Shown piece by piece: positions 20,701 to 25,657 of a stretch of 64,000 nucleotides of DNA; the stretch's first letter is position 1; every line of letters begins with the position of its first letter. Below the pieces are notes generated by a model, which was given only the letters and a program-made list of their open reading frames with translations, had not been told where the DNA came from and did no database searches. The stretch comes from Escherichia coli O127:H6 str. E2348/69 (GTDB taxonomy: Bacteria; Pseudomonadota; Gammaproteobacteria; Enterobacterales; Enterobacteriaceae). A program made the translations under genes and the position numbers. Where the stretch lies: assembly GCF_000026545.1 (NCBI RefSeq), contig NC_011601.1; one strand, given 5' to 3'.

Positions 20701-22141
20701 GGACAAGCTCCTGTTGTGCGGCTTTCGCTTTGCGGCGTAACCACAATCCTTTCAGGACGATAATGAATGAAATGTTCAGCGCCAGACCAATCGCCAGCAC
20801 CAGATAAAACGAACCTACCGGCGACATCAGGCCGATCAGCGGGTCAAAGATACCTAAACCCGGTGCCAGACGTTTGATTCCGAAAGCGATCACCAGCACG
20901 CCGGTAATGCCGCCCGCCAGCGTATTGGCGGTAATCATCGGCAACGGAGCTGCCAGAGCGTAAGGAATAGCTGGTTCGGTTGCGACTGTGGCACCGACCA
21001 CAATGGCACTACTGGCAGCCTCTTTTTCCTGTTGAGTAAACAGTTTGGGCGCAATGAACGTCGCAAGACCCGACGCGACGGGCGGCATCAGCGCGACAAC
21101 GCCGACGATGGCGTACCAGTCATAAATGTGTTTTTCCAGCAGCGAGAAGCAGAAGAACCAGGCAGTTTTGTTGATGGGGCCGCCCATATCGAACGCCAGC
21201 ATCGCACCAACCAGAAACGCCGCCGCAAACTTCATTGACGGAGGAATAGTATTCAGGAAGTGCAGCAGCCCGCCCATGAGGTCGGACATCACCGGCCCGA
21301 TAACGTAGTAAGTGAGCACGCCAAAAACCAGCAGAGTAACGAACGGGATCAGCATTGAACCGAGCAGCGGTTGTAATGCTTTGCCAAGGCGCACTTTGCG
21401 GAACCAGAAGACGAAGTAGCCAATTGCCAGCCCCAGCACCACCGCACCGAGGAAGCCCGCGCCAGACTGGGTGCCGAGCAACGCTTTGTCGTTCGCCAGA
21501 TAGCAAACCAGAAACGCCGGAGCGAAAGCGGGTTTATCGGCAATCGACGAGGCAATATAAGCGCCCATGATGGGGATCATAAAGGTGAAGCCGAGATAAC
21601 CGATGGATTCAACCACCCAGGTAAACGACGGCGCGCCTTTCGACATATCGGTATACGGCAAACCGAACTGCACCAGCATGTTGGCAAGCGCCACCAGAAT
21701 ACCGCCGCCGATGACAAACGGCAGTGCCGCAGAGACGCCCGCCATCAGGTGGCTCATCACGCTGCCGCTTTGTACTTCCTGTTTGCCGAGCTTTACGCCG
21801 CTATCTGCGGCAAAAAGCTGCGAGTTTGTCGGTAATTCACTGAAAATCTGGTCGATATTTTTCAACGCCTGGGAGATGGCAATCTCATAAACCTTCTTCC
21901 CGGCAAACCGCGCGCGATCGTCGCCGCTCAGACCACGCCCGGTGGCGAGAATCACGTAATCGGCAGCGGCAATCTCTTCGCTGGATAAGCGGTTTTCAAC
22001 GCCGCTTGATCCTTGAGTTTCCACTTTAATGGTATAGCCGAGAGAACGGGCTTTCTGTTCCAGGGCTTCCGCCACCATGTAGGTGTGAGCGATCCCGGCA
22101 GGGCAGTTGGTGATCGCGACAATACGTAAGGATGACTCCAT
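20690..22141 (-). CDS. frvB: PTS fructose-like EIIBC component
   Basis: 483 aa, N-terminal IIB Cys motif (NCPAGIAHTYM), polytopic C-terminus. Confidence 0.9.
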   Translation of the reverse strand: MESSLRIVAITNCPAGIAHTYMVAEALEQKARSLGYTIKVETQGSSGVENRLSSEEIAAADYVILATGRGLSGDDRARFAGKKVYEIAISQALKNIDQIFSELPTNSQLFAADSGVKLGKQEVQSGSVMSHLMAGVSAALPFVIGGGILVALANMLVQFGLPYTDMSKGAPSFTWVVESIGYLGFTFMIPIMGAYIASSIADKPAFAPAFLVCYLANDKALLGTQSGAGFLGAVVLGLAIGYFVFWFRKVRLGKALQPLLGSMLIPFVTLLVFGVLTYYVIGPVMSDLMGGLLHFLNTIPPSMKFAAAFLVGAMLAFDMGGPINKTAWFFCFSLLEKHIYDWYAIVGVVALMPPVASGLATFIAPKLFTQQEKEAASSAIVVGATVATEPAIPYALAAPLPMITANTLAGGITGVLVIAFGIKRLAPGLGIFDPLIGLMSPVGSFYLVLAIGLALNISFIIVLKGLWLRRKAKAAQQELVHEH

Positions 22142-22151
22142 CGCTACGTCC

Positions 22152-22598
22152 TTATGAGCTGAGGGTTTGATTTAACAAAGCAAGCACCTGGTCGGCGTCG
22201 CCCTGTCGCAGTTGGTTGATAAAATCCTGGTGGATAATTTTGCGACATAGTGTGCCGATGAGTTTGACCTGATCCTCTTCGCCGCTTTGCGGTACGCCGA
22301 GGCAGATCCAGCAATTGACGTCTTCGCCATCGCTGGCTTGCCAGTCAATGGCTTGTGTTTTACGTGCGAACAGCACGAACGGTTGTTTAACGCAGGCGCT
22401 TTTACCGTGCGGTACGGCGATGCCGGAACCAAAACCGGTGGAGTGCATTTTTTCGCGCAGTAGTAACGTTTGCAGGAATTGGTGTGAGTCGGTGATAAAA
22501 CCGTTTTGTAACGCTATTGTCGCCAGTTGCTTCAGAATGGAATAAGCGCCGTTGCCCTGAATATTCAGGTCAATACAGCTTGCAGTAAGTGCTGCCAT
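22152..22598 (-). CDS. frvA: PTS fructose-like EIIA component
   Basis: 148 aa, PTS IIA fold signature with conserved His. Confidence 0.9.
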   Translation of the reverse strand: MAALTASCIDLNIQGNGAYSILKQLATIALQNGFITDSHQFLQTLLLREKMHSTGFGSGIAVPHGKSACVKQPFVLFARKTQAIDWQASDGEDVNCWICLGVPQSGEEDQVKLIGTLCRKIIHQDFINQLRQGDADQVLALLNQTLSS

Positions 22599-23073
22599 TA
22601 TCAGACTCCATGAAAAATATTTCAGTTAATTGTAATCGCGGGGCGGGTTTGTGATGAGCGCGGATATGTCACGAAGTCGCGACAATATAAAGCAGAGTGA
22701 AAGGTAAAATTTGCGGTACCAGACACATATCAGTAGATAAAATAAACTTTGTGAATAAAGTATTATTATTTAATGATTTTGTGAATGTTTAAATGCCCAG
22801 GATATCTTGCCATAACGTTATTTATATTTGTGGCTTATGAGTCAGCGTGAATTATATCTAATATTTTTTACGATATTTAGTTAAAAACGGCACTATTGTT
22901 ATATTCCTCACATTCCAGGAAATCAGCGGATTTACTCATATTATGCAGCGGGATACTATCCATCGGCCTGCTGAAGTTGGATTAAAAATTCGAAAGTGCA
23001 CACCTTATATTTCTCTATATACGTATTCCTTTTGGAAAGCGTAGGGTCTCCTTTATTTCAGGGAACGTAAATA

Positions 23074-24468
23074 ATGAAAAAATCGACATTATCTTTAGCC
23101 ATCGGTTTATTATTGGCATGTAGTACCGGTATGGCAAAAACACAGCATTTAACGCTGGAACAACGCATGGCATTGCTGGAAGAACGCCTGGAAGCGGCAG
23201 AAATGCGGGCAGCAAAAGCAGAGGGGCAGGTTAAACAGCTTCAGACACAACAAGCCGCCGAGATCCGCGAAATTAAGATCGCACAGGGCAACACGCCGGT
23301 AAACGGTCAATCAACGACGGAGTCAGAGAAGAAAAACGCCACCCCGCCTAATCTCCTGCTTTCAGGGTATGGCGATTTAAAAATCTACGGTGACGTAGAA
23401 TTTAATATGGATGCGGAAAGTAATCATGGCCTGCTGGCAATGACCAACGCTGATGTGAATAGCGATCCCACTAATGAACAGTGGAATCTCAATGGTCGTA
23501 TTCTGTTAGGTTTTGATGGTATGCGAAAACTGGATAATGGCTATTTCGCTGGGTTCTCCGTACAACCGCTGGGGGATATGCACGGTTCAGTAAATATCGA
23601 TGATGCGGTTTTCTTCTTTGGCAAAGAAAACGACTGGAAGGTCAAAGTAGGCCGTTTTGAAGCCTACGATATGTTCCCGCTGAATCAGGATACCTTTGTT
23701 GAACATTCCGGTAATACTGCGAACGATCTTTATGACGATGGCAGCGGTTATATCTATATGATGAAAGAGGGCCGCGGGCGTTCTAACGCTGGCGGTAATT
23801 TCCTCGTCAGCAAACAACTCGATAACTGGTATTTTGAATTAAACACGTTACTTGAAGACGGAACATCTTTATATAATGACGGTAATTATCATGGACGCGA
23901 TATGGAGCAGCAGAAAAATGTTGCTTATCTGCGTCCGGTAATTGCCTGGTCGCCGACGGAAGAATTCACCGTTTCCGCAGCGATGGAAGCGAACGTAGTA
24001 AATAATGCTTATGGTTATACCGATAGCAAGGGTAATTTTGTCGATCAGTCCGATCGTACCGGCTATGGTATGAGCATGACCTGGAATGGCCTGAAAACGG
24101 ATCCGGAAAATGGCGTCGTGGTTAATCTTAATACCGCCTATTTAGATGCTAATAATGAGAAAGATTTCACTGCCGGGATTAACGCGCTGTGGAAACGTTT
24201 CGAGCTGGGTTATATCTACGCACATAATAAGATTGATGAATTTAGTGGCGTGGTTTGTGATAACGATTGCTGGATTGATGATGAAGGAACATACAACATT
24301 CACACCATTCATGCGTCTTATCAGTTCGCTAATGTGATGGATATGGAGAACTTTAATATTTACCTCGGCACGTATTACTCCATTCTGGATAGCGACGGCG
24401 ATAAGATACACGGCGACGATAGTGATGACCGTTACGGCGCACGCGTTCGCTTTAAATACTTCTTCTGA
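23074..24468 (+). CDS. putative outer-membrane beta-barrel porin with N-terminal coiled-coil (carbohydrate-porin-like)
   Basis: 464 aa; signal peptide MKKSTLSLAIGLLLACSTGMA; heptad-like LTLEQRMALLEERLEAAEMRAAKAEGQVKQLQ; alternating aromatic/polar strands; C-terminal ...RFKYFF; AGGGA SD upstream; absent from K-12 order as I recall it. Confidence 0.6.
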   Translation: MKKSTLSLAIGLLLACSTGMAKTQHLTLEQRMALLEERLEAAEMRAAKAEGQVKQLQTQQAAEIREIKIAQGNTPVNGQSTTESEKKNATPPNLLLSGYGDLKIYGDVEFNMDAESNHGLLAMTNADVNSDPTNEQWNLNGRILLGFDGMRKLDNGYFAGFSVQPLGDMHGSVNIDDAVFFFGKENDWKVKVGRFEAYDMFPLNQDTFVEHSGNTANDLYDDGSGYIYMMKEGRGRSNAGGNFLVSKQLDNWYFELNTLLEDGTSLYNDGNYHGRDMEQQKNVAYLRPVIAWSPTEEFTVSAAMEANVVNNAYGYTDSKGNFVDQSDRTGYGMSMTWNGLKTDPENGVVVNLNTAYLDANNEKDFTAGINALWKRFELGYIYAHNKIDEFSGVVCDNDCWIDDEGTYNIHTIHASYQFANVMDMENFNIYLGTYYSILDSDGDKIHGDDSDDRYGARVRFKYFF

Positions 24469-24508
24469 TGAAAGGGCGGTGCTGGATATTATCCGGCACC
24501 GCAACTCA

Positions 24509-24823
24509 TTAAGGCAGGTAAAACACTTCTTGCAGTTCGCTACTGACTGGGCTGTTATCCGCATTAGCGGGCATAACGTCGATCATATATTTCCACCAAC
24601 GTTGGCAAACATCTGTACTGGCAACCGCATTCCACCGCTCTTCAGATTCAATCTCTATCGTGGCAAATAGCAGATTACGCGCTTTGTCGAGATAGATGGC
24701 GTAGTTATGCGCACCGTGAGATTTCAGCACTGCTTCCAGTTCCGGCCAGATGGGATTATGCCGACGCTGATACTCTTCGTGGGCGTCGGGGTTTACCTGC
24801 ATGACAAAGGCTTTGCGGATCAT
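24509..24823 (-). CDS. rhaM: L-rhamnose mutarotase
   Basis: 104 aa, [22 protein letters not shown]. Confidence 0.93.
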
Positions 24824-24832
24824 GTTTGCTCC

Positions 24833-25657
24833 TTACAGCGCCAGCGCACTGGCGAGTGGTGTAACGCCGAAACGCTGGCCGAGCGCTATCAACTCTTCAC
24901 GACTGATGGTCTGTTTCATGCCGCCCATCGAATAAACCTTCACTAATACTTGTGCTGATTTTTCTGCGGTGTCGATTAAACCGAATGTTTCATCCAGTGT
25001 CGGACCGCTGCCGAAGACGCCGTGGAAGGGCCACAACACCAGCGAATGTTTTTGCATTTCCTGTGCGGTCGCCTGGCCGATTTCGTCCGTGCCGGGCACC
25101 ATCCACGGCAGAATTCCAACGCCATCCGGGAACACTACCAGACACTCGGTGCTGCCTTCCCAAAGCTGGCGAGTGAAGACCGCGGTGTCGTTTTCCAGTA
25201 CGTAGGTAAGGGCGATCAGGTTGGTGGCATGGCAGTGCATGATCACCCGATCTTTACCGTTGGTGGCTTTAATGCGCTCGCAATGAGAGAGAAAGTGAGC
25301 CGGAAGTTCGGATGTCGGGACGGCTTCGTTGGTTAACCCCCAGAGAATATGGTAGCCCGCGCCGTCGCTGTCGACTTTTACGACGCCTAAGTTAGCCGCA
25401 GGATCAAGCTGGACGTTACGGAAGAATTTGCCGGAGCCGGTGACAATAAACGGTGTATTTGCCAGTAAAGGCATGGGCTGGCTGAGCGGGATATAGCGCG
25501 GTTGTGCATGAAAGTTGCCGTGATAAGGCGCGATATCGGCGTCATCCAGGCGCAGCGTCAGGTTACCACCATTGCGCTCGTCCCAGCCTTTCAGCCAGGC
25601 ATCGGTGGTGGCTTTGATCATTCCCTGGACAAACCAGGACTGGGTTATGTTTTGCAT
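24833..25657 (-). CDS. rhaD: rhamnulose-1-phosphate aldolase
   Basis: 274 aa. Confidence 0.93.

Follow-up and report, generated by a model that had tools for sequence, protein, structure and literature searches.

The porin gene that is the subject of this report lies between frvA and rhaM on the chromosome of Escherichia coli O127:H6 str. E2348/69, in a stretch of 64,000 nucleotides of contig NC_011601.1 that was analysed as a whole (hereafter, the window), and it is compared here with the described porins of the RafY family. The prototype of the family, the plasmid-borne RafY, is the subject of Ulmke et al. (1997) and Andersen et al. (1998), the latter of which, as its title (listed in PMC4827864) has it, presents RafY as a channel with no saturable sugar binding; a wide general diffusion pore for raffinose, stachyose and maltodextrins is known for plasmid RafY only. 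GlyP of Klebsiella pneumoniae is a RafY-family porin under the control of the LacI-type repressor GlyR, whose expression alters carbon-source access and gut-community fitness and compensates the loss of major porins (bioRxiv 10.64898/2026.03.29.715108). The chromosomal gene itself, without accompanying rafRABD, has been named rafY2 in a paper on strain O157:H7 (PMC4809568).

We consider it highly likely that the product of the gene between frvA and rhaM is the chromosomally encoded orthologue of RafY, the porin of the raffinose plasmid (PF16966, TCDB 1.B.15), and a wide sugar channel whose gene is ancestral at the rha locus. The interval 22599-24508 is exactly the spacer that separates frvA (22152-22598) from rhaM (24509-24823), both on the minus strand, it matches E2348/69 at 100% identity over 1910 bases by megablast, and it holds a single open reading frame (ORF) on the plus strand, which starts with ATG and encodes 464 amino acids followed by a stop codon. 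Residues 104-464 of the product match the entire Pfam model Porin_8, “Porin-like glycoporin RafY” (positions 1-372 of 372, E 1.4e-155, 518 bits), which is also carried by all of the 120 homologues listed. This match, together with 658 database homologues and a ratio of nonsynonymous to synonymous substitution rates (dN/dS) of 0.03-0.07, excludes a chance ORF. The protein shares 78% identity and 86% positives over 450 amino acids with the porin that is encoded after rafR-rafA-rafB-rafD on an E. coli plasmid, and the same 78%-identical porin follows these genes on a pheV-integrated island too; the porin directly after rafR-rafA-rafB-rafD is RafY itself. The gene, its family and its annotation are already public, the exact sequence being present in public databases on 137 contigs, and the gene is of a known kind.

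NCBIfam assigns no family to the protein, and the naming therefore follows Pfam, whose search returned no LamB, OprB or KdgM match. In the Protein Data Bank (PDB), a search with the single sequence gave chance matches only (E ~0.3 or more) and a search with a 58-sequence profile gave coiled coils only, none of them significant; the RafY family is without a solved structure. The definition of the family by sequence does not require linkage to raffinose or α-galactoside genes, and at the E2348/69 porin locus there are no raf genes.

The architecture of the protein has been examined on an AlphaFold2 model, built from a 58-sequence alignment, with a mean predicted local distance difference test score (pLDDT) of 66 and with barrel blocks mostly at 80-90. 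The model consists of one helix (residues 28-71), a disordered linker (residues 72-100) and 16 long β-strands (residues 101-463), with a loop of 46 residues between strands 5 and 6; TCDB likewise predicts 16 strands for the RafY family. The fold matches of the model are 16-strand porins, the closest being general or ion porins, and the modelled barrel is of the general-porin type, not of the maltoporin type. The most conserved block of the family, residues 193-241, contains 29 of the 115 invariant alignment columns, and in the model the strand 5-6 loop is the counterpart of the constriction loop L3 of 16-strand porins. At the N-terminus, the signal peptide is probably of the signal peptidase I type, since the family retains Ala21 (at least 90% conservation) but not Cys16. 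One heptad register over residues 24-72 has hydrophobic residues at 11 of its 14 a/d positions, while each of the other six has them at 4-6; the Pfam domain Sugarporin_N (PF11471) is matched weakly at residues 27-52 (E 0.08, below significance) and is precomputed in some homologues. The protein ends in ...RYGARVRFKYFF. Two cysteines of the long loop between the predicted strands 13 and 14, Cys395 and Cys399 (VVCDNDCW), which are also C at both positions of the family consensus, could form a loop disulfide.

The initial annotation, made from the window alone, had described a secreted, porin-like product of 464 residues between frvA and rhaM, and this description is borne out by the signal peptide, the heptad helix, the C-terminal RFKYFF and a β-barrel that is predicted rather than missing. 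Its term “sugar-specific channel” does not suit the RafY family, given the Pfam result and the 16 predicted strands; a sugar-uptake role agrees with a family that is tied to sugar uptake, while the part of the proposal that linked this role to frv and rha draws on gene position alone.

The position of the gene in other genera has been compared in a one-genome-per-species scan, which covers at least 54 loci; Escherichia albertii, Escherichia fergusonii and the cryptic Escherichia clades lie outside this comparison, and the neighbouring genes in Superficieibacter and Trabulsiella were labelled by ORF calling and BLAST. Orthologues that are 81-85% identical, and likewise convergent with rhaM, occur in Citrobacter species, including C. 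rodentium, and in Kluyvera; the adjacency of porin and rhaM is also seen in Pseudocitrobacter, Superficieibacter, Trabulsiella and isolate RIT691, i.e. in at least six other genera in all. The side that faces rhaM is fixed across the genera, while the upstream neighbour varies, being frvA, azlCD with a helix-turn-helix-cupin gene, or raf genes. In Trabulsiella odontotermitis the order is frvRXBA, porin, rhaM, identical to that of E2348/69. From these shared gene orders it follows that the presence of the porin is ancestral and that the K-12 state is a deletion or an allelic replacement. In one genome of the scan, that of Kluyvera genomosp. 3 YDC799 (L031), nearly all genes of the locus, including the porin and rha genes, are fragmented, which looks like the result of assembly indel errors rather than real pseudogenes.

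The direction of change is thus the reverse of the one proposed by the initial annotation, in which an accessory porin had been inserted between frvA and rhaM. A horizontal acquisition by some E. coli lineages would account for the absence of the gene from K-12 and from all but 47% of the complete genomes, for the related copies on plasmids and on a tRNA-Phe island, and for a G+C content (GC) below that of the flanks: 45.0% in the coding sequence and 34.9% in the 475 bp upstream (22599-23073), in agreement with the AT-rich region of ~470 bp noted initially, against 51.4% in the window. In all genera checked, however, the GC of the porin is 7-12 points lower than that of rhaD, so that the low GC is intrinsic to the gene; no integrase, insertion sequence (IS) element, tRNA or direct repeat was found at the borders in E2348/69; and the synonymous divergence (dS) from Citrobacter has, at 2.7, reached saturation, which is what vertical orthologues should show. 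Taken with the same orientation relative to rhaM in at least six other genera and the identical order in Trabulsiella, these results have already largely refuted an insertion, which we regard as very improbable. The term “accessory” is appropriate in the pangenome sense, but not in the sense of an import.

Within E. coli, we have surveyed 5426 complete genomes, counting the porin as present where at least 80% of the 1910-bp interval was found. The porin is present in 2543 genomes (47%) and is lost in 2814 (52%), which have the K-12-type spacer of 300 bp; the two states together make up 5357 genomes. In K-12 MG1655, the 300-bp gap between frvA and rhaM has no gene, and the two genes are neighbours there, as the initial annotation had stated, while BL21(DE3), which belongs to phylogroup A like K-12, has the porin, as do O157:H7 and E2348/69. 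Independent losses and rearrangements are found at the same site: an IS1-associated deletion has left only the last 75 bp of the porin in strain HS30-1 (L002:3288-4077), an IS1 insertion occurs at the porin locus of strain H22, strain 2547 (L005:4514-5068) has lost the frv operon and part of yiiG and has kept the porin, and some B2-type strains have the porin without the frv operon.

The comparison of the two allele states has revealed an abrupt change of identity. From frvB through frvA up to the spacer, BL21 and K-12 share 98.5-100% identity; over the ~200 bp of spacer that are shared, porin alleles and empty alleles are 66-71% identical, whereas porin alleles are 82-89% identical to each other and two empty alleles 99%. 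Such a divergence of ~30% next to nearly identical frvA and frvB suggests that the whole cassette is swapped by recombination, and the two states look like old, deeply diverged cassettes. The homology of the spacer to K-12 by blastn stops near 22716, and the distal 140 bp of the K-12 spacer have no match in the porin allele; that these 140 bp, in which a CRP-like TGTGATTTACTCACA is seen by eye, are a remnant of the porin promoter was considered and rejected, as the score of the best local alignment (26) does not exceed the shuffle mean (28). This recombination boundary is sharp and lies at the start codon of frvA (22599-22800, set against L004:4825-5124 and L070), beyond which the spacers of BL21 and K-12 are only ~70% identical. 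When all 300 bp are compared, the empty alleles form two identity classes, although their first 200 bp are 99% identical. The near 50:50 occurrence of the two states, the presence of both within phylogroup A and the swapping of cassettes would fit a trade-off, but that selection has long maintained the presence and absence of a surface porin as a polymorphism at this site is a tentative proposal to which we give a rather low chance; if true, access to bulky sugars, for example, would be traded against exposure to phage, colicin, bile or large antibiotics.

The sequences of the porin alleles bear on whether the gene has a present function in E. coli. By dN/dS, which is 0.06-0.07 among E. coli alleles (dS 0.07-0.19) and 0.03 in comparison with Citrobacter and Kluyvera, the porin is subject to strong purifying selection; 13 E. 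coli alleles differ at just 31 of the 464 positions, most densely in the linker, and the ORF is intact across the 2543 genomes. These values, along with the conserved promoter elements described below, speak against a cryptic, normally silent gene that is being lost, a reading to which we give the least credence, even though the raf partner genes are missing in E. coli, 52% of the genomes have lost the porin, the IS1-associated truncations in HS30-1 and H22 are independent, and the AT-rich upstream DNA would be typical of genes silenced by H-NS.

Several of the genes that accompany the porin in other genomes are concerned with α-galactosides. Enterobacter sp. ENT03 has the porin between frvRXBA and rafR-rafA-rafB, while Superficieibacter and K. 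oxytoca have rafRAB immediately upstream of it. Other neighbours are a GH4 α-galactosidase gene with genes for a phosphotransferase system (PTS) IIC component and a GntR-type regulator, or genes for a galactoside O-acetyltransferase, a LacI-type regulator and a GPH symporter. The three-gene module of GntR, a lactose/cellobiose-family PTS IIC and a GH4 α-galactosidase-like protein is found in Superficieibacter and in a Pseudocitrobacter metagenome-assembled genome (L016:6057-9548, L015:3615-7019), on either side of the porin, and its gene content suggests a PTS-type α-galactoside pathway at the porin hotspot. α-Galactoside genes thus recur beside the porin, which in no case shares an operon with rha or frv genes. 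Within the E. coli presence/absence segment there is no cognate transporter or catabolic gene, as had been noted from the window.

A channel that is specific for rhamnose or for the frv substrate, and works with the neighbouring rha or frv genes, would explain the conservation of the rhaM adjacency over many genera and the arrangement in E. coli, Trabulsiella and Enterobacter ENT03, where the porin is divergent from frvA and shares an intergenic region with it. We find such a channel very improbable: porin and rhaM are convergent with a strong hairpin between them and are therefore not co-transcribed; Citrobacter and E. coli strain 2547 keep the porin without an upstream frv operon, while K-12 retains frv and rha without the porin; the recurring cargo is the α-galactoside genes; and the conserved upstream motif is CRP-like and, to our knowledge, bears no resemblance to RhaS or RhaR sites. 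L-rhamnose (164 Da), moreover, needs no special porin.

The relationship of the chromosomal gene to the mobile rafY has been explored with a neighbour-joining tree, in which plasmid RafY is placed inside the clade of the rha-locus porins, beside the E. coli chromosomal gene, and with dS, by which the E. coli gene is 0.86 away from plasmid rafY and 2.7-3.4 away from its counterparts in Citrobacter and Kluyvera. On account of this placement and of the low dS, the mobile rafY probably descends from an Escherichia-like chromosomal copy; its dN/dS is 0.16, against 0.03-0.07 for chromosomal copies, which indicates faster protein evolution. As related further reading of the same comparisons, the chromosomal frvA-rhaM site may be the place where the mobile raf operon was assembled. 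The full cluster rafR-rafA-rafB-rafD-rafY occurs at tRNA-Phe, beside a tyrosine integrase, in the chromosome of the chicken isolate GPEC1176 (L006:142-9319) and also on a 125-kb plasmid (L003:1728-9319), and ~200 plasmid matches were obtained in the survey.

Upstream of the porin, the comparison of 16 chromosomal orthologues, which represent eight genus-level groups, has revealed elements at fixed spacing in all 16: TGTTA-N6-TCAC(G/A), 18 nt, TTTAC, 17 nt and nTAnTn, the rest of the upstream DNA being unalignable. Neither plasmid rafY nor the K. oxytoca copy that is linked to raf has these elements upstream. The CRP-like motif has one match in the window, with 0.34 expected by chance. Judged by consensus and conservation, the elements would constitute a class I CRP-dependent σ70 promoter, from which we infer a transcription start near 22966 and a 5' untranslated region of ~108 nt. 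Downstream, the segment 24462-24515 folds with -27 kcal/mol (z = -6.2), and none of 200 shuffled sequences folds as well; the hairpin that separates the convergent stop codons probably terminates transcription in both directions. A generic promoter and terminator scan proposed no more sites than in shuffled sequence, and no Rfam family was found in 22000-25000 at E up to 1.

In the mechanism that we propose, the protein would be exported by its signal peptide, of the signal-peptidase-I type, and its 16-strand barrel inserted in the outer membrane, most likely as a trimer like its structural neighbours, with the highly conserved strand 5-6 loop folded into the lumen and with the periplasmic coiled coil probably holding or stabilising the subunits of the trimer. 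By analogy with RafY, the channel would be wide and non-saturable, and di- to tetrasaccharides (raffinose, melibiose, stachyose, maltodextrins) together with other solutes that are too large for OmpF or OmpC could pass through it to the resident inner-membrane carriers, e.g. LacY and MelB, with no dedicated partner in E. coli. The conserved CRP-like site, at ~-61.5, suggests that expression from the gene's own promoter is probably raised by cyclic AMP-CRP under carbon limitation, and, more speculatively, the AT-rich surroundings may add silencing by H-NS. In the Escherichia-Citrobacter-Kluyvera-Klebsiella group, the 3' end of the rha operon would be the ancestral place of the gene, and in E. 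coli the locus would form an old presence/absence polymorphism, with the empty allele in K-12.

Several points weigh against this reading. Channel width, selectivity and trimeric state are carried over, by analogy, from RafY, which is 78% identical, and from the fold neighbours, and the searchable literature has yielded no experiment on the chromosomal copy. The structural model is moderate overall, with its mean pLDDT of 66, and the conformation of loop L3 is not reliably modelled; the neighbour-joining tree has no bootstrap support. The left half-site of the CRP-like sequence has T in place of the most critical G, and the generic promoter scan passed over the -35/-10 pair and proposed 22982-23011. 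Lastly, half of E. coli lack the gene, and its contribution is thus conditional. The family, the predicted fold, the position, the purifying selection and the upstream elements are observed features, while the pore properties, the oligomeric state, the binding of CRP and the substrates are those that we infer.

The orthology with RafY and the ancestral position nevertheless correct a K-12-centred view of the locus, at which the deleted state of the laboratory strain is the derived one and roughly half of natural E. coli, including enteropathogenic E2348/69, O157:H7 and BL21, have an extra, predicted wide-channel porin. Such a porin could affect how raffinose-family sugars and other bulky ones are used in the gut and, as with GlyP in Klebsiella, the permeability of the outer membrane to large antibiotics once OmpF and OmpC are lost, and possibly the sensitivity to phage or colicin.

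The coordinates of the features are given in Table 1.

Table 1. Features of the porin locus between frvA and rhaM (positions in the window).
Feature	Position	Strand	Remarks
frvA-proximal part of the spacer	22599-22770		Common to the K-12-type empty allele at ~66-71% identity; blocks conserved across genera
CRP-like site	22897-22912	+	TGTTATATTCCTCACA; consensus TGTGA-N6-TCACA; centre ~-61.5 from the putative start
Putative σ70 promoter	22931-22936 (-35), 22954-22959 (-10)	+	TTTACT, 17-nt spacer, TACTAT
Shine-Dalgarno sequence	23060-23065	+	AGGGAA; 8 nt before ATG, inside the cross-genus conserved block CTTTATTTCAAGGAA
Porin coding sequence, RafY family	23074-24468	+	Identical to RefSeq WP_000749929.1, “carbohydrate porin”
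Signal peptide	23074-23136	+	Residues 1-21; putative cleavage MKKSTLSLAIGLLLACSTGMA / KT
Periplasmic N-terminal coiled-coil extension	23143-23286	+	Residues ~24-71; heptads, helix in the AlphaFold2 model
Low-confidence linker	23287-23373	+	Residues 72-100; disordered in the model; variation among E. coli alleles is highest here (8 of 29 positions)
Predicted 16-strand β-barrel	23374-24465	+	Residues 101-464; C-terminal signal ...RFKYFF
Long loop between strands 5 and 6	23656-23793	+	Residues 195-240; short helix 215-221; pLDDT <50
GC-rich hairpin	24476-24502		GCGGTGCTGGAT-ATT-ATCCGGCACCGC; between the convergent stop codons of porin and rhaM

Unrelated to the porin itself, the frvA-proximal part of the spacer presumably contains the promoter and operator of frv. 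An inverted repeat, ATATGTC-N10-GACAATAT, is located there at 22664-22688, and its cores ATATGTC and TGACA are kept in both allele classes of E. coli and in Trabulsiella, Enterobacter ENT03, Kluyvera and RIT691; the repeat is a candidate operator of the uncharacterised frv operon, possibly for FrvR. On the other side of the locus, the segment 25705-25843 of the rhaD-rhaA spacer (~139 bp) aligns to several offset, overlapping positions in K-12, where this spacer is ~450 bp long, compared to ~190 bp here, and the alignment indicates copy-number variation of an element like the repetitive extragenic palindromes (REP) or bacterial interspersed mosaic elements (BIME).

Among the known systems, RafY of pRSD2 resembles the E. 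coli porin in its length of 464 residues, in its 78% identity over 450 of them, in the full-length Pfam match, in the clade that both occupy in the tree, and in the succession of signal peptide, coiled coil, linker and barrel that ends in RFKYFF; the E. coli gene differs in being chromosomal, between frvA and rhaM and without rafRABD, and in having its own CRP-like promoter, which is missing from plasmid rafY. GlyP is likewise an alternative nutrient porin of the RafY family, but is encoded in an operon of regulator, permease, hydrolase and porin, whereas the E. coli gene stands alone with no specific regulator next to it. DcaP of Acinetobacter baumannii (PDB 6eus), which reportedly bears an N-terminal periplasmic coiled coil as well, and OprP of Pseudomonas aeruginosa (PDB 2o4v) are also 16-strand barrels, but they belong to another family, with 12% sequence identity, no match at the sequence level, and dicarboxylates and phosphate as substrates. 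KdgM, with 12 strands in place of the 16 predicted here, and OprB are both set apart by the lack of a Pfam match. ScrY and LamB overlap with the RafY family in the role of oligosaccharide entry, RafY reportedly complementing lamB and scrY mutants, and ScrY also has an N-terminal coiled coil; they differ from the E. coli porin in the Pfam LamB family, which it does not match, and in having 18 strands against its 16 predicted ones, and RafY for its part shows no saturable sugar binding.

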